The position numbers and the translations under genes are program-made. From the sequence record DRR723986_5155: a DNA stretch of 64,000 nucleotides; one strand, 5' to 3'. Positions 1 through 62,600 of this stretch are shown here, one piece after another; the first letter of the stretch is position 1, and each line of letters begins with the position of its first letter. The notes beneath the pieces are model-generated. The model saw only the letters and a program-made list of their open reading frames with translations, was not told the DNA's origin and ran no database searches.

Positions 1-30
1 ATTTGAACCGACGACCCCTTCACCCCCAGT
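1..30 (-). other. att site: 3' half of tRNA-Pro(GGG), truncated by the window edge
   Basis: Minus strand reads CTGGGGG TGAAG GGGTC GTCGG TTCAAAT (anticodon loop, 3' anticodon stem, variable loop, T arm). The 5' anticodon stem is CTAAA instead of the CTTCA needed to pair with TGAAG, and there is no D arm. The site lies just downstream of the integrase. Confidence 0.8.
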
Positions 31-156
31 TTAGTGCGCCCTCGCTAACGTATTGAGTTTTAGTGCCTGGAACGCTTCACCAATGTTCAAAAAACTCATG
101 TGTTCACTTCCCGTTCTTGTAAATTTGAACATGTGTTCATGGGCGCACTTCACAAG

Positions 157-6109: not shown

Positions 6110-6763
6110 ATGTGCAATTTGTACTCCCACACATCGGCCCGACAGGCGGTCATTGATTTCACCCGGGCGATGAAGGTGGCCGACACGGTTGGGAACATGG
6201 AACCGCAAACGGGGATCTTCCCTGACTACGCGGCACCCATCGTCCGAAACATCGACGGCGAACGTCAGTTGTCAATGGCTCGCTGGGGAATGCCGTCTCC
6301 GGCCTTCACCCTCAAGGGTCGGAAGACCGACAGCGGCGTCACGAATGTTCGGAACACGAAGTCCCCGCATTGGCGGCGATGGCTCAGCCTCGAGCATCGA
6401 TGCGTCGTACCTTTCAACGCATTCTCGGAATACGAGACCGTGGACGGTAAGAAGTCGCCCGTTTGGTTTGCGATCGACGACGACCGACCGCTCGCTTTCT
6501 TCGCCGGAATCTGGACGTCCTGGACGAGTGTTCGTAAACTCAAGGAGGGGGAGGGGACGGCGGACCTGTTCGCGTTCCTGACGACGGAACCCAACAACAT
6601 CGTCTCCCCCATCCATCCGAAAGCGATGCCTGTGATCCTGACGGCCGAGGACGAGATCGAGACCAGGATGACGGCACCTTGGGACGAGGCCAAGGAGCTA
6701 CAGCGGCCGATGCCGGATGGCGTGCTGGAGATTGTCGCTCGGGGAGAGCGTTACGATGGCTGA
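6110..6763 (+). CDS. SOS response-associated peptidase (SRAP/YedK/HMCES family)
   Basis: N-terminal MCNLY (catalytic Cys2), RWG, RCVVP..F.E, IHPKAMPVIL. Confidence 0.95.
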   Translation: MCNLYSHTSARQAVIDFTRAMKVADTVGNMEPQTGIFPDYAAPIVRNIDGERQLSMARWGMPSPAFTLKGRKTDSGVTNVRNTKSPHWRRWLSLEHRCVVPFNAFSEYETVDGKKSPVWFAIDDDRPLAFFAGIWTSWTSVRKLKEGEGTADLFAFLTTEPNNIVSPIHPKAMPVILTAEDEIETRMTAPWDEAKELQRPMPDGVLEIVARGERYDG

Positions 6764-9168: not shown

Positions 9169-9193
9169 AACCTGTCGGAAATCCTGGCAGGTT
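9169..9193. repeat. Single copy of the 25-bp variable palindrome
   Basis: AACCTGTCGG AAATC CTGGCAGGTT; 22/25 identical to 13945-13969. Confidence 0.85.
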
Positions 9194-13298: not shown

Positions 13299-13616
13299 TC
13301 AGGGACGATACCCGATTATTTCTCCCTGCTTCACATAGACGTTTTGATATTCCGATCCTTTGACGGGCACTGCCATCTTGCAGGTGACAAAATATACGAC
13401 CTGCTTTTGCGTGGAGTGGGAGGGTGACATGCTGGCATTGCCGATGCTGACGCATCCGGGATGGTTTGCAGCCACAAATTGAATAGCATCGTTTAACCCA
13501 GACATCAGATGCTGCTGGTCGCTGGGGAGGTAGGCGGCTCCTGCGCTGACCACAGCTTCGGCATTTGCAAGTGCAGGGACAAGAAAAAAGGCGGAAGCGA
13601 CGATAATCGTCTTCAT
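13299..13616 (-). CDS. Hypothetical secreted protein
   Basis: Signal peptide MKTIIVASAFFLVPALANA; AGGAG RBS. Confidence 0.75.
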   Translation of the reverse strand: MKTIIVASAFFLVPALANAEAVVSAGAAYLPSDQQHLMSGLNDAIQFVAANHPGCVSIGNASMSPSHSTQKQVVYFVTCKMAVPVKGSEYQNVYVKQGEIIGYRP

Positions 13617-13907
13617 TGTAGTCTCCTAGTATCAATTGCAGCGACATATTTTACAATTAAAAGTTAAGTTGAAATGACTATGCTAACCCCGACTTTATGT
13701 ACCTCATATATTCCTTCATATCCGACGTTGTGTCCGCTGCCACGACGATCTCGCACCTGTAACAACGGTGACGACCTGATAGGAATTCTCCCTAGTTCGA
13801 TAAGACATCAAATAAGGAAGCCTGTGCCGCGTCTCTGGTCCCGCCTTCAAAAGGTCAAACGACTGCTTCCAGAGGTGTAAACAGCGATGAGAGGGGCGAC
13901 GTGATCC

Positions 13908-14233
13908 AACTATTCGAAATCTTCTCAATAGTTGCCCGACGTCGAACTTGTCGGAAATCCCGACAGGTTGCCAGATGTTCTCGCGCCGGGGAGATCGAGG
14001 CTGTCGCCATATACGAACCTATATGTGTGGAGGTAATATACGAGCGTATATAGGCTCCGCGAACTACCGAGGATTCCTCGGAGGTTGGACGAAGGGGCAA
14101 CTGTCCGGGAATTCCAGACGGTTAGACGGCGAGCAACTTCCAAGAAAACTTTGGAGGTTTGGTGTCGAGGACCAACGCGCAAGAAATCCTTGCAGGTTGA
14201 AGGACGGCAACTTGTGCAGAAAATGCACAGGTT
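13908..14233. repeat. Array of seven variable 25-bp palindromes (AAC-N7-N5-N7-GTT)
   Basis: Units start at 13908 (26 bp), 13945, 14062, 14099, 14135, 14174 and 14209; adjacent units are separated by 10-14 nt linkers. Confidence 0.9.
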
Positions 14234-14243
14234 CGATTTCGCC

Positions 14244-14276
14244 ATCAAAAAAGGCGGCCGGAGCCGCCTCTCTGAT
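14244..14276 (-). terminator. Intrinsic terminator-like hairpin closing the array
   Basis: AGGCGGC-cgga-GCCGCCT stem with a T-tract on the minus strand. Confidence 0.65.
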
Positions 14277-14697
14277 TTCGCGTTCGCCTGATTGAAACAG
14301 ACTTCCTAAACTTGGGTCAGCCAGATCCCTCTTGACAACGAAGTAAACAAACGCTGACAGCGCTTCCCATCCTATCGAAGCGTTCCGCCTCTTCGGACGC
14401 TGGATCCACGAGGCCCAGGATTGACATCCTTGTTCAGAGGCAAATCTCCAAAGCTTCGTAGAGCGCCTTCCATCGGTGTCGGCAGTCCTAACCGCTTGAT
14501 GATTTGGCCAAACCACTCCGTTCTGAGAACTGATTTTAGACGTTCCGGAATTCGATGGCGTAACCGTTTGTAGCTACACAGCACCCGTTCGGTAAGCTAG
14601 AGGTCTAAGGTTTCTGTCTTAGATACATTCTATCCGAACCGGAACGTCGGCATTCTTTGGTCTTGGTCAAACCCAATCCGCTATGTAGGCTTCCTGC

Positions 14698-22041: not shown

Positions 22042-22070
22042 ATAACGCGGACAAATATAGTCCGTGTTAT
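22042..22070. promoter_or_regulatory. Probable autoregulatory operator of the Rrf2 regulator
   Basis: ATAACGCGGAC-N7-GTCCGTGTTAT inverted repeat abutting the start codon. Confidence 0.7.
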
Positions 22071-50955: not shown

Positions 50956-50980
50956 AACGTGGAAGGAATTCCTCCACGTT
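50956..50980. repeat. Single copy of the 25-bp variable palindrome
   Basis: AACGTGGAAG GAATT CCTCCACGTT. Confidence 0.85.
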
Positions 50981-51288
50981 CAATTTCGCGACCCAACGTG
51001 TCAGAGATATTCAGGTTCACCGAAGTCTTGGTTTCTGAAGGGGGACATCTCCTGCAATGAGCCCATCGCATGACTGTTGGTAAGCAACCCGTTCGCCCAG
51101 ATACAACTAGGCTTTTCCACACAAAATCATGAAGTAACAGACAAAAGTGCCCCTCACTGCGTATTCAGCAATGAGTAGCAACGCTAATTTTTGAAGATCC
51201 GAAATTGCGTTCGCCTCGATAAAAAGTGGACGAACGCGGAACCATGTCAGGGAAGATTCTTTTTTGAGAAGGTGATTACTCGCAGCCG

Positions 51289-55416: not shown

Positions 55417-55516
55417 AACTTGGCGGTTTTCCAGCCGAGTTTAGGGTCGGCAACTCGTGCAAAATTTGCACAGGTTCGATACCGGCATCAAAGAGGGCCG
55501 ACGGAGCCCCCTTTGA
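55417..55516. repeat. Two-unit palindrome mini-array plus terminator-like hairpin
   Basis: Units at 55417 and 55452 with a 10-nt linker, then TCAAAGAGGGC..GCCCCCTTTGA. Confidence 0.85.
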
Positions 55517-57470: not shown

Positions 57471-57530
57471 AACCTGGCGGTTTCTCCGCCAAGTTCGATG
57501 ACGGCAACCTGGAAGGATCCTTTACAGGTT
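57471..57530. repeat. Two-unit palindrome mini-array
   Basis: AACCTGGCGG TTTCT CCGCCAAGTT, 10 nt, AACCTGGAAG GATCC TTTACAGGTT. Confidence 0.85.
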
Positions 57531-57573
57531 CGATTTCGCCCATTCCCGACCGGATGCCGATGAGGGGCAAACG

Positions 57574-58318
57574 ACGTCGGATTTCCGATGGACTTACGAT
57601 GGATTAACGCCCCGATGATCTCGAAAACCGAGGAAACGCCTGCGGTCGCGGCTGTTTCGGTTTCGATGGATTAACGTCGGATTTCCCTTGGATTAACGGG
57701 GTCGAGAGCCGTCCTTGATGTCAACAATATACGGCTGGGCCACGGATTTCGGGCGGTTGGGAGGCGCTATACGTGTTTCGCAGTTTCCGTATAGCTGGGG
57801 CGGCCGGAGATCGGCGGCTCATCTCATGCGACATCAAGCGAATTCCCCGGCGACGATCATCCTGGACGGCGGCGGATTCGATGTTTCGGTGGCGATGGAT
57901 TAACGCTGGATTTCCGATGGATTAACGGTTGGATTAACGTCGTGCATCCCTCGTAAGGCGAGGGTTCCCCTAGGTTTTTCGGCTTCTGTAGCTTGATGGA
58001 TTAACGTCGGATTGCCGATGGACTTTCTCCCGGAGAGCACGCCCTTCATGTCAACAATATACGGCTAAGCCACGGGTTTCGGGTGATTTCGCGGCTCCTG
58101 GTCGTAGCGGCCGGGCGGCGGCCAACGTCGAACCATTAGGAGATTCCGAATAGTTGCCCTCGACGGCGATGGATCCCTGTCGGATTTCCGATGGATAAAC
58201 GTCGAAATCGTTGACGCGATGAGGCAACGCCTTGGGTTTTCGATAGCGGTGGTTTGATGGATTAACGGTGGATCACCGTGATCGACGACGAAATCCCGTC
58301 CCCGATGTCAACAATATA
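57574..58318 (+). repeat. Iteron-like direct-repeat region
   Basis: TGGATTAACG core in 8 exact and several degenerate copies; 22-bp unit GATGGATTAACGTCGGATTTCC; ATGTCAACAATATA three times. Confidence 0.9.
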
Positions 58319-58689
58319 AGGCGGACGCACGCGTCGTTACGGGCGGCTCCGTCCGCCCGCCGGGTTTTCGGGCGCTCACGCTCGACGCCGAAACCCCAAA
58401 AACCGCAGAAGTCAGCGGTTTTCTGCTCCTTTGGAGCCATCTCAAGGTTGGAACCGACATCGATTGAAATCGCGGTAACTCCCGGAGGATGGGGAACCGT
58501 GGGTGCCCAACCGTCAACGAAAGAGCCAGATTTGAGGCCGCGCCTCCAACGGCACACCGACGCTTCGCTCTGGTGCACCGTTTCCGGCGAAGCTTCTAGG
58601 ATTTCGGACCCCCTGACGGGGGAATTGAAAGCGAAATCCATTCTTTGAAATCGACACATTCGGTCCGAGACCGGAATGGTGTTCTTGGA

Positions 58690-58865
58690 GGGGTGTATTG
58701 CTCAATAGCTTGGATCAGTGGTTGTGGAAAGCGCCCGGCGCTTTTTCGCAGTACACGTTACGCAGGTCCCCTGGGGTTTTCGTGGCCTTCGGCCCCGTTA
58801 GGAAGCCCGCCGTTGGCGGAATCCTGCCGTTGGCAGGGTGGCCACACACTGTCGTTTTGTGGCTT
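58690..58865. other. Candidate oriT region
   Basis: Non-coding and hairpin-rich (CCGCCGTTGGCGG, CCTGCCGTTGGCAGG, GCCACA..TGTGGC), upstream of the mob operon. Confidence 0.4.
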
Positions 58866-58921
58866 GCATCGCTTTCGCCGACGATTTCCTCCGAATTCGC
58901 ATTCCAGCAAAGGGGAAATCA

Positions 58922-59257
58922 ATGACACTGAATAGCCACCTCCAGAACTCCGTCTTTGGCTCCATCGGTCCGGTATCGGTAAAGACGGTCACCCGCGTTC
59001 AACCTGTCGAACGGAAACCTAAATCGCGGGTTGCCGGGTTCCTTCTGATCGACGGCACCTGGATCGAGTTTCCGACGACGGAAATGAAGCACGACATGTT
59101 CGCCGACATCGAAGAGCACGTTGAGCACTCAGTTCAGTTTGCGGACCTCCGCTCCACCATCGCTTTCCCTCGATATGAGCGCCAGACAGCCCGCTCCGGA
59201 AACTCGCTATCCGTCCATCCCCTGATCATTCTTTCCAACCCGAGGCTCTCTCGATGA
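58922..59257 (+). CDS. Hypothetical protein, first gene of the mob operon
   Basis: AGGGG RBS; ATGA overlap with the next gene. Confidence 0.65.
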   Translation: MTLNSHLQNSVFGSIGPVSVKTVTRVQPVERKPKSRVAGFLLIDGTWIEFPTTEMKHDMFADIEEHVEHSVQFADLRSTIAFPRYERQTARSGNSLSVHPLIILSNPRLSR

Positions 59258-59697: not shown

Positions 59698-62600
59698 GTG
59701 TTCAAATCCAAGCGCATCGTAGACATCTTCTATCACGTCAAAGCGAACCAGGTCAGTCAGGCTGAAGCCGGCGAGGCCTCGGTTCCCTATGACGTCATGA
59801 ACGAGCTTGATGATCCTCGCGATCAAACGCGAAAGGGTGCCAAGACACCCCGCAAGCCTCGCTACACTGATTACACGGCTGGAGACGACAGCGGCGAGTC
59901 CGTCGGTCGTGCTTTCCACTTGCAGCGCGACGACATCTCGAAGTCGTTCTTCTCCAACCCGGACGATCCCTTCCTTCTTCACGGAACGGTTCCCGATGCG
60001 CAGGTCATGATCGATCTCGCCGGGGCCGTTCATCCGCGCACGGGCGCGAAGCTCCGTAAGGACGTCAAAACGAAAAACGCGGACGGCACCCAGAAGAAGC
60101 AGACGGTGGCTTTCGACAGCCCGTTCTCGGCTCCGAAGTCGGTCAGCGTTCTCTGGGGTGTCGCGGATGCGCTCAACCGGGCGGGAGTGGATGTTCCCCA
60201 TGCCCGCGCCATCGAGAAGGCTCAGGAGTATGCCGTCGATGCCGCCATCAAGTGGATGTTCGATGAGGGACTGATCGTCTCCCGGAAGAACAATAAGGAC
60301 CGGAAGGGCAAGAACAAGACCGACGTCGTTCATGCCAATGAAGTCGCTGGAGCCATCTACGATCACAAGACGTCTCGTTCCGGCGACCCGCAGGTTCACA
60401 GCCACTGGGTGATGATGAACCTGTGCCGTCTGGAGAACGGGGATATCCGGACGCTCGATAACGTCCAGATGATCCGCTACCAGAAGACGATCTCCAACAT
60501 CTATCGCACCGCGCTCGCCGAACACCTGCGCGACAGCCTCGGCATTGAATTCGAGGGCGAGAAGGATTGGATCGAAATCGCCGGCATCGGGGCCGATCTG
60601 CGGAAGCAGTTCTCCAAGCGCCGCGAGGACATGGAGAAGGCCGCTCGCGAAAGAGGCTCGTCTCTCGAAAACAAGGGTTACGCCAGCCAGGTCGCTCTGG
60701 CCACTCGCGGAGACAAGGACGACATCCCACCGATCAGCGAGCTCGCTCCGTTGTGGCTCCAGCAGGTTCGTGAACTCGGGTACGACCCGGAGGAACTTCT
60801 TCAGAGCCTCGCTCCGAAAGCGAAGGAAGTTCGTGACGAGCGCGAAAAGCAGGAATTGACGCCGGAGAAAATGAAGACGGCGGCAATGGACGCGCTGACG
60901 GAGAACCTTGCTGTCTTCGAGGATCGCGAGCTGACCGCCGAGTTCACGAAGCTGTATCAGGCGAGCGGCGGCACGTTCGAGGATGCCATCAAGCAACTCG
61001 ACGACATGAAGAAGTCGGAAGAGATCGTGACGCTCGAGTTTGATCGGTATCACGACCCGATCCTGACGACACAGAACATCCTCGGAATGGAAGTCGAAAT
61101 CGTTGAGGTCTCGAAGAAGATGAAGGATCGCTACGAACCCTTCGTGGACGCGCACGTCGTCGAGACCTTCATTGCCGAAAAGCAGCGCGTGAATGGCGAG
61201 CCTGCTCTCAATGTTCTGGATGCCATGAACGCCGCCCTGGACGACATGGGCGTGAACGCCTTCGCGACGACGAAGGAGCGCCGACATTTCGGTCGCCTTC
61301 GGGAGTCCATGACCAAGAAGGGAGGCTTCAACCGGAAACAGCTCGACCGCGTGATCTTCTCTTTCGAGAACATCGCGAAGCGTCTCGGTGACGACGTTCC
61401 CGCTGAAGTCAACGAGACCATCAACGGCTTCCGCGAGCTTGCCGAGAACTGCCCGATGATGACGGCGGAGCAGGCTGACTTCGTTCGTCACCTTCTGGGG
61501 CGTGACGGGGTTTCTGTCGGCGAAGGTTCGGCCGGGGCGGGCAAGACCTACGCTCTGGAGACGGTCGCCAACATCATGCGGTCGCAGGGCAAGACGCCTT
61601 ACATCCTCGCGCCGTCATGGCGTGCGACCGACGTCGCCCGTATCGACACGAAGACCAAAGAGGAATTCGCTCGCGCCATCCAGGGGTTCATCAACCGCTA
61701 CAAGAAGGGTGAGATCCAGGTCGACGCGACCTTCGGCATCATCGTCGACGAAGCCGGGATGGTCGGCCACGAGAACATGCGCGACCTCCTGCGGATCGCG
61801 GATGAGACCGGAGCGCGGCTCATCCTGACGGGTGACCGTCGTCAGATCCAGCCGGTCGCCGCAGGGAATCCTCTCGTCCTGGTCGCCGACGTCGTTGACG
61901 CGAAGCGCATCGATCAGATCCGCCGCCAGAAATTCGCCTGGATGCGCGAGAACTCGACCAAGTTCGCTTCCGGGAACAAGGAGAAGGCCGTCGAGGCGCT
62001 CAAGGACTATGACGCCCGGGGCTTCTTCCAGTGGTTCGATAATTCGGACAAACTGATCGAGACCGCCGCCGCGGACTACGCGAAGATGGTCATGGAGAAC
62101 CCGAACGCTACGCTTCTTGCCATGCACCCCACCAACAGTGGCGTCCGCAAGTTCAATGAAAAAGCTCTGGACCTATTGAGGGAGATGGAAGTCGTCAGCC
62201 CCGCCAAGGACGATGTGTCAATGGAGGTTATCACACGAGGCGCCGAAGCTCAGACCATGGTCGTTGGTTTCGGAAAGGGGCATCGAATTATTCTTGGCGA
62301 GACGCTCGAACTCGACGGCGTTCGTTATGCGAACGGGCAAATCGCAACAATCATGAATGCTTGGCTCGACACAACGGGCGAGCCCTTCTTCGATCTACTC
62401 TTCGATGATGGAAAGCGCAGGATCTTCGCGTGGTCCGACTTCATTCGTCATCGCGAGCTGATGCACAAGAAGAAGGTCGAGAACGGCGACAAGGACATCG
62501 AACCCTTGCTGCCGAAGCTTCAGCACGCTTTCGCTACGACGGAAACGTCCGCGCAGGGCATGACTGTCGACTACTCCTTCATTCTGGATCCGCAGCACTC

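Follow-up and report, generated by a model that had tools for sequence, protein, structure and literature searches.

Why would a mobile DNA element carry a tight cluster of small palindromes that all share one shape while every one differs in sequence? This question was raised by a 64,000-nucleotide stretch of DNA (hereafter the window), in which seven AAC-N19/20-GTT palindromes lie within 13908–14233. A preliminary description made from the sequence alone had reported them as 25-bp units (one of 26 bp) in which only AAC...GTT, the length and a mostly A/T-rich 5-nt centre were fixed, with inner arms that differ yet co-vary to stay complementary. It proposed four possibilities: a library of hairpin RNAs or single-stranded DNA hairpins, a panel of binding or decoy sites for a protein family with variable specificity, donor templates, or recombination sites. 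We first evaluated whether the pattern exceeds chance, and then searched for related sites in other genomes.

A palindrome family on an integrative mobile element

The observation of a palindrome array was confirmed, and all seven units were found where they had been placed (Table 1). AAC-N19-GTT occurs 33 times in the window, against 13.6 ± 4.0 in 100 dinucleotide shuffles (largest 25; none of 100 reached 33). When at least 7 of 10 Watson-Crick arm pairs were required (lengths 24–27), 20 hits remained, against a mean of 3.7 and a maximum of 10 in 100 shuffles. About eight further units are dispersed outside the array. To evaluate covariation, we analyzed 18 units, 14 from the window and 4 from L001, the only close relative of the element that we found. 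Overall, 90% of stem cells pair, against 69.3 ± 2.2% in column shuffles (0 of 500 reached the observed value) and 25–47% when partners were slid, and 39 cells change on both sides, against 13.3 expected. This last count is biased upward, since the dispersed units were picked for palindromy; within the array alone, however, positions 7–9 still pair in 17 of 18 cells. Two points of the preliminary description required correction. The claim that only AAC...GTT is fixed is too strong, as G at position 10 (15 of 18 units), A at 12 (15 of 18), C at 16 (13 of 18), A at 21 (13 of 18) and G at 23 (18 of 18) are also strongly biased. In addition, the hairpin said to close the array as a terminator is real (14252–14269), but its conserved T-run lies on the minus strand, so that this reading is ambiguous as to strand.

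Table 1. Palindromic units and associated features of the window. Inner triplets are positions 8–10 of a unit; scores are bits for R1, a covariance model built from the 18 units.
Position	Strand	Feature	Inner triplet	R1 score	Remarks
13908..13933	+	Unit 0, 26-nt degenerate palindrome (7 Watson-Crick pairs of 10)		14-16	Same opening stretch kept in L001 at 6307-6327
13945..13969	+	Unit 1 (9 of 10 pairs)	CGG	34.5-36.7	Sister copy at 9169
14009..14057	.	Two unrelated AT-rich inverted repeats that interrupt the array			Absent from L001's short array
14062..14086	+	Unit 2	GAG	29.5	Degenerate relative at L001 2543
14099..14123	+	Unit 3	CGG	31.4	
14135..14159	+	Unit 4	AAG	30.2	
14174..14198	+	Unit 5	AAG	31.8	Differs from L001 6350 by one base
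14209..14233	+	Unit 6	GCA	31.1	Sister copy at 55452
14234..14270	-	Conserved linker plus G+C hairpin with a T-run on the minus strand ('terminator' part of the module)			Cargo begins just to its right; recurs at 55477-55515 and L001 6375-6410, degenerate copy after 9193; a related contig diverges from 14274 on
9169..9193	+	Single unit with a degenerate copy of the linker/hairpin module	CGG	33.1	
22044..22068	+	Weak, doubtful unit abutting the start codon of an Rrf2 regulator gene	No class seen in genes	23.6	
50956..51020	+	Unit plus a weak second unit 37 nt on	AAG (first unit)	31.4 and 10.8	About 300 nt upstream of the TPR-GreAB-C-PIN gene
55417..55515	+	Two units 35 nt apart plus a copy of the hairpin module	CGG, GCA		Between convergent genes at the right edge of the 41-kb cargo
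57471..57530	.	Two units (57471, 57506) 35 nt apart	CGG, AAG		Between the AbiJ-like gene start and the oriT-side repeats; this ~85-bp block is inverted relative to L001
58131..58155	.	Single unit inside the 1.5-kb repeat-rich non-coding region upstream of the relaxase operon			Orthologue at L001 8371, with one two-sided compensatory change

The window is an integrative conjugative or mobilisable element. It starts in a tRNA-like 3' fragment (a tRNA scan of the window detected no tRNA) next to a Xer-like tyrosine recombinase at 157–1200, and ends in a MobF/TrwC relaxase starting at 59698. Between these lie defence-type genes (PDC-S31, a Ymh/HEPN protein, a HIRAN protein, a RES/Xre pair, TPR-GreAB-C-PIN, and an AbiJ-like PDC-S32 gene) and about 35 kb of metabolic and regulatory cargo. 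The array itself sits in a 640-bp gap, and 'unit(s) plus linker plus hairpin' is a repeated module. L001 is a 25-kb contig binned with a Verrucomicrobiota MAG, detected through its relaxase (84% identity). It has a two-unit array only about 1.1 kb from its oriT-side pair, whereas in the window 41 kb of cargo lies between the array's hairpin and the second module. Further searches for relatives returned no near-identical DNA in the plasmid collection, only plasmid relaxases below 60% identity (the 30 rows listed were at most about 40%), one irrelevant metagenome locus at 25% identity, and no relaxase relative in 400 further Verrucomicrobiota genomes, so that variation of array content among strains is barely sampled here. 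Contigs aligned to the region from sequencing runs covered 13411–13655 and 13966–14340 only. In a related metagenome contig among these, the array part (13966–14233) showed 2 listed changes, against 9 in the 34 nt beyond the hairpin (14274–14307). The sequencing runs containing the element included no RNA run and two DNA runs with a small share.

The units matched no Rfam family at the gathering score over the whole window, and a search of 12–16 kb at E ≤ 10 returned only two chance-level rows. They are not coding repeats, since the periods of 35–39 nt are mixed in frame. Spread over the host chromosome had been named beforehand as a result that would count against the family; in G001, the one host-like genome that we scanned, every R1 match above 25 bits lies on the element's contig, and the best elsewhere reaches 18.7 bits (150 of 1155 candidates were scored). 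In viral contigs, an exact 31-mer from the conserved region gave no hits. A two-unit pattern gave 14 stretches, of which 2 (L033 and L035) are palindromic pairs, and a pattern including the flanks gave L035 only. L035 is a phage contig whose pair lies 25 nt before a tRNA-Met gene; it has no protein resembling the RhuM head described below and shares no protein with the window or L001. The three repeats of L033 share one sequence and look like ordinary operators. A possible link between the array's AT-rich repeats and the oriT-side repeats through a shared 7-mer was dropped because this 7-mer occurs 7 times in the window, about the chance expectation. Resemblances to LuxR, LexA, NtrC, ParB and dif sites were likewise set aside, as the spacing or the conserved bases do not fit their general consensus sequences.

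The palindrome in RhuM genes and the residue-triplet rule

Next, we searched 151 sampled Verrucomicrobiota genomes (the phylum of G001) with R1, which hit 47 of them at E ≤ 1e-3, usually at one place per genome and at up to 38 bits. We translated 13 sites in 10 of the 12 returned loci (one of the others, L050, repeats the site of L049). Of these, 7 lie in intact RhuM-like frames, 3 in heads cut off exactly at the palindrome, and 2 are free, the thirteenth being one of these free sites read on its other strand. The sites were near-perfect 25-bp palindromes of the same build, lying inside a conserved protein motif. A Pfam search placed the first position of the RhuM domain (PF13310; PADLOC candidate PDC-S05) on the palindrome, which sits where an N-terminal head joins the RhuM body. 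The palindrome was found in 12 of 12 RhuM matches from 5 genomes and in 37 of 37 sampled genes, all with at least 7 Watson-Crick pairs of 10, 36 with at least 8, and 21 perfect. It was also found in 6 of 6 RhuM genes on plasmids of Bacteroidota, Bacillota (2), Alpha- and Gammaproteobacteria and Campylobacterota, in the same codon phase. RhuM is frequent, being present in 139 of 401 sampled Verrucomicrobiota genomes, and is embedded in restriction and defence loci in many phyla.

The units of the window share the build of the gene copies, i.e., a 25-bp palindrome with 10-bp arms, a 5-nt A/T-rich centre and mostly AAC...GTT ends, as well as their immediate flanks (GC before AAC, CG after GTT), and R1, built from the units, finds the gene copies at 27–38 bits. 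By eye, and for the inner triplet only, 16 of the 18 units (window plus L001) fall in the 9 classes seen in 37 genes, against about 2.5 expected by chance, the exceptions being 22044 and 58131. Unlike the gene copies, however, the units do not lie at the first codons of a PF13310 domain behind a head, and are thus members of the site family but not of the gene. In the window, nine RhuM proteins searched by tblastn found nothing better than the units themselves (best E 0.17), and a profile of the head found nothing in six-frame translations of the window and L001 (best E 0.88, the array itself). A weak RhuM-like hit at L001 1677–1934 (E = 0.003) did not look like RhuM when its translations were read, and G001 has no PF13310 match at E ≤ 1e-40. 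The units do not appear to be remnants of whole RhuM genes either, since a nucleotide profile of the gene region aligns to them only from about 14 nt upstream to 12 nt downstream, and each repeat keeps only about 10 nt upstream and 2–5 nt downstream of the site.

The region upstream of the gene-borne palindrome encodes the head, for which an AlphaFold model (36 sequences, mean pLDDT 80.5) predicts strands, a helix-turn-helix and a beta-hairpin, the palindrome encoding the first strand of that hairpin. The best structural neighbours are DNA-binding winged-helix domains, namely pSK1 Par bound to centromere DNA (Z 6.6, rmsd 1.4 over 53 residues), the P1 ParA N-terminus (Z 6.5) and RacA (Z 5.2). 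These values are below 8 and may reflect only a common arrangement, and Foldseek gave no match at E ≤ 0.001. In the predicted recognition helix (the second helix, 48–60), the residue before the invariant His sorts without exception by the inner triplet of the palindrome: CGG/GGG with E (13 of 13), CGA with Y/H (5 of 5), AAG/CAG with M/L/Q/I (11 of 11), GCA with R (3 of 3), TCC with K (3 of 3), and GAG with L and GAA with V (one each). One CGA gene (L083) encodes the same eight residues as three CGG genes, so the tracked difference is synonymous DNA, which is evidence for DNA recognition and not a protein-protein contact. We next evaluated the contribution of descent: on a tree of the RhuM body the class changes 19 times among 36 rows, and in 7 of 7 independent pairs the residue follows the triplet (sign test p = 0.016). 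Seven pairs is a small number, however, and since head and palindrome lie about 60 nt apart and are inherited together, part of the rule could still be descent. Two genes, L089 and L096, have near-identical heads and an identical linker but differ in both helix and palindrome, and all five of the six outside-phylum genes that keep the His follow the same pairs (L–GAG, Q–AAG, K–TCC, R–GCA, E–CGG).

An inferred bank of operator-like sites and its rivals

Taken together, this suggests that the units are free-standing copies of what we call the RhuM junction palindrome, a symmetric site written into the codons of RhuM-family genes and most likely the binding site of the encoded head, bound as a dimer. 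In this view, different RhuM lineages have different head specificities and matching palindromes, which would explain why the units differ in sequence yet each stays symmetric, and the array, whose six 25-nt units are all in gene-sense orientation, would be a compact bank of seven operator-like sites of several specificities on an element that encodes no such head in the 64 kb seen. What the analysis itself establishes is the family identity of the units, the presence of the palindrome in every RhuM gene examined, the residue–triplet rule, and the absence of a cognate gene in the window and in L001. That the head binds the site is inferred, as is any action of the bank through binding, by titration or decoy, the RhuM-type proteins of whatever cell the element is in or enters, where each unit, folded as a hairpin on the transferred single strand, could offer a duplex half-site. 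The interpretation given in the preliminary description was therefore partly supported: of its four possibilities, a panel of binding or decoy sites fits best, whereas the covariation need not be taken as proof of an RNA or single-stranded DNA hairpin library, as symmetric operators of different co-evolved dimers give the same pattern. We estimate a probability of about 0.5 for this reading as a package. Membership of the units in this family is very likely and a protein-binding role for the family is likely, while a selected titration or decoy device is less likely than not.

Seven footprint-sized pieces of different classes, 10–14 nt apart, are hard to obtain from random decay of seven genes, which favours either selection for a bank of sites or a site-directed process. 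Two features nonetheless suggest relaxed constraint. No free unit in the window is a perfect palindrome (0 of 15, each with 7–9 of 10 pairs), in contrast to 21 of 37 in genes, and orthologous units differ from L001 about as much as the surrounding non-coding DNA does (1, 3, about 3–4, 7 and 8 changes in 25 nt). Also against this reading, the spacing of 35–39 bp is not in helical phase, the classes CGA and TCC are missing from the bank, and, with RhuM of unknown function and PDC-S05 only a candidate defence family, the benefit of a decoy is conjecture. The boldest form of this reading, in which a bank of operator mimics, one for each common specificity class, would soak up or misdirect RhuM in each cell the element enters, and in which each palindrome on the incoming single strand could offer a duplex half-site before the second strand is made, is not excluded but remains unlikely. 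If true, it would represent a DNA-level way to deal with a host protein family, whereas anti-defence is not known to take forms other than proteins or RNAs. More generally, a self-encoded operator within the wing of the head that would read it, with a simple residue-to-base rule holding across phyla, would provide a direct experimental handle on what RhuM binds and how it is controlled. Literature searches, as far as their listings show, found no paper linking RhuM with a palindrome, operator, inverted repeat or winged helix, and one paper lists RhuM only as a neighbour of programmed inversions (PMC9881135). New here are the residue–triplet rule, its replication across phyla, and the orphan bank of several classes on a mobile element.

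The best-surviving alternative, possible but less likely, is that the palindromes are hot spots or sites of exchange for defence and cargo cassettes, and that the array is a stack of joints left by repeated cassette turnover, with no function of its own. Units with the hairpin module sit at the edges of variable segments: homology between the window and L001 breaks about 50 nt left of the array, about 15 nt right of its hairpin, and at the oriT-side pair, and the 41 kb of cargo lies between two copies of 'unit + hairpin'. Between the same flanks there is 1 unit at 9169, 1 unit after the degenerate first unit in L001, and 7 in the array. The inverted ~85-bp block holds a pair, heads with their palindromes are reshuffled against RhuM bodies (the 19 changes in 36 rows), three heads end exactly at the palindrome, and in one genome (G120) a RhuM body is bracketed by two identical palindromes. 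The imperfection of the free units and the Xer-like integrase would also fit. However, random deletion would not leave seven footprint-sized pieces of different classes so closely spaced, no recombinase has been tied to the sites, palindromes of different classes share little homology for exchange, only 1 of 9 RhuM loci shows bracketing, and the residue–triplet rule points to reading of the site by a protein, which this model does not need. If the sites do mark cassette exchange, they bear on how defence islands are assembled.

Less likely still, the units could fold on the transferred or displaced single DNA strand, or in an RNA read from the plus strand, and serve as priming or processing signals or as a protein-sponge RNA ending at the hairpin. 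The 400-nt region folds far better than shuffles on both strands (z = −7.1 and −6.7), all array units share one orientation, five of the six 25-nt units have T-G at pair 4, the loops are A-rich on the plus strand, the units lie near oriT on the inferred leading-region side, and one orthologous unit shows a two-sided compensatory change. However, the common orientation and the T-G pair are also what the gene-sense copy has (a Thr codon on one side and a Gln/Val codon pair on the other), and wobble pairs favour the plus strand only 12 to 6 overall. A promoter scan detected no sigma-70-like site (against 1.1 expected), the conserved T-run is on the other strand, no Rfam family matched, one pair is inverted in the relative yet keeps its place, and the residue–triplet rule points to duplex recognition. 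Finally, selfish or mutational palindromes of the REP/MITE kind, kept symmetric by template switching (an established mutational route at quasi-palindromes) and occurring singly, in pairs and in a cluster mostly between genes as REP/BIME elements do, are very unlikely given the confinement of strong matches to the element's contig in G001, the lack of a Y1/HUH transposase among the roughly 66 window ORFs scanned with Pfam, and a main home at one fixed codon position of one gene family across phyla, which mobility does not explain.

Comparison with known systems

Among integron attC sites, REP/BIME elements, CRISPR and ToxI-type arrays, resemblances are limited by defining features. Integron attC sites also share little beyond AAC...GTT and their symmetry, mark cassette borders and go with a Xer/IntI-clade recombinase, but they are at least about 55 nt long, pair RYYY with RRRY outside the AAC/GTT triplets, have extrahelical bases and follow an ORF. 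Here, the units are 25 nt and 10–14 nt apart, the flanks do not pair (only 2 of 6 right flanks fit GTTRRRY), and the integrase scores 53 bits against a cut-off of 265 for integron integrase (TIGR02249). REP/BIME and SMAG-type palindromes moved by RAYT transposases are likewise imperfect, about 25 nt long, found singly, in pairs and in clusters, and have stems that differ between subfamilies, but they are spread across a genome and carry a GTAG/CGTC tag, whereas in the one genome scanned matches above 25 bits lie only on the element's contig, and the family's main home is a coding position of RhuM genes. ToxI-type (type III toxin-antitoxin) and CRISPR arrays share the period of about 36 nt, the hairpin after the array and the location among defence genes, but their repeats are near-identical and stand next to their protein genes. 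In the window the units all differ, the spacers are 10–14 nt (against about 30 nt in CRISPR) and share a motif, no cas family appeared in the Pfam scans, no credible ORF follows on the plus strand, and the next minus-strand gene is a 105-aa signal-peptide protein.

Intragenic or auxiliary operators of autoregulated winged-helix/MerR-like proteins (for example lac O2 inside lacZ) are also symmetric sites for a dimeric helix-turn-helix protein inside coding DNA, with specificity set by the recognition helix. In RhuM genes, the site is written into the predicted wing codons of the protein itself, at a fixed phase in every gene examined, and co-varies with the helix, and the window's copies have left the gene. 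Titration or handcuffing arrays, such as E. coli datA for DnaA, P1 incA and plasmid iterons for Rep, or F sopC for SopB, are compact, non-coding, regularly spaced clusters of short binding sites whose presumed effect comes from holding a protein. No ParA, ParB or Rep family appeared among the ORFs scanned, although the element runs on beyond the window. Those arrays repeat one site for one protein encoded nearby, whereas this putative bank holds sites of four inner-triplet classes, with no cognate protein gene found in the 64 kb or in the relative.

Non-coding DNA around the palindromic units and the relaxase operon

Upstream of the relaxase operon, a repeat-rich stretch carries eight direct copies of a 9-mer (GGATTAACG), often beside a 12-bp mini-palindrome whose core matches the centres of the 25-bp units, along with three copies of a ~13-mer. 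These repeats are retained in L001, the contig carrying a relative of the element, and look like relaxosome or replication protein sites. The adjoining stretch of non-coding DNA includes long segments identical to L001 (84% overall) and is much better conserved than its surroundings. No Rfam match was found for this region, which could hold oriT/nic, a promoter, or an RNA. At the opposite end of the window, the reverse strand reads like the T-arm part of a tRNA or tmRNA that runs off the window, and this is probably the attachment-site end of the element, next to the Xer-like integrase.

To the right of the hairpin that follows the array, a gap lacks any credible gene, and a related metagenome contig diverges sharply from position 14274 on (9 changes in 34 nt), which marks a cargo junction. 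A further short motif, of the TTCG-YG-TTCG type, recurs beside the modules of units and hairpin and before the TPR-GreAB-C-PIN gene, while in L001 it flanks the short array on both sides as a ~17-bp direct repeat.

Coordinates of the features in the window and in other loci.
Sequence	Coordinates	Feature
Window	1-50	tRNA- or tmRNA-like T-arm part, reverse strand
Window	14271-14291	TTCG-YG-TTCG-type motif
Window	14272-14697	430-bp gap without a credible gene
Window	14274-14307	Divergence from the related metagenome contig
Window	51197-51215	TTCG-YG-TTCG-type motif
Window	57550-58330	Repeat-rich non-coding stretch
Window	58330-58950	About 600 bp of conserved non-coding DNA
L001	~6255-6275 and 6410-6430	TTCG-YG-TTCG-type motif
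L035 (phage contig G402)	7898-7963	Pair of units
L056	364-1785	Two tandem head-plus-palindrome genes
L065 (G120 contig C44)	1503 and 2409	Two identical perfect palindromes

Palindromes and RhuM-type heads in other contexts

In L035, a 33.8-kb phage contig, a pair of units with the same flanks as in the window lies 25 nt upstream of a phage tRNA-Met gene, between convergent gene blocks, and no head-like protein is encoded on the contig. In locus L056, two tandem genes consist of a RhuM-type head plus the palindrome, followed by the same unrelated tail, which looks, when translated, like non-coding or tRNA-like DNA. The heads are cut or re-joined exactly at the site. In locus L065 (genome G120), a RhuM body is bracketed by two palindromes 906 nt apart, one in the gene and one just after it, an arrangement seen in 1 of the 9 loci examined. 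Finally, in the PADLOC results for loci L062 and L061, the RhuM head also matched models of a second candidate family, PDC-S23, over residues ~13-147 (to 219 in one row), and the same head, and perhaps the same site, is therefore joined to other bodies.
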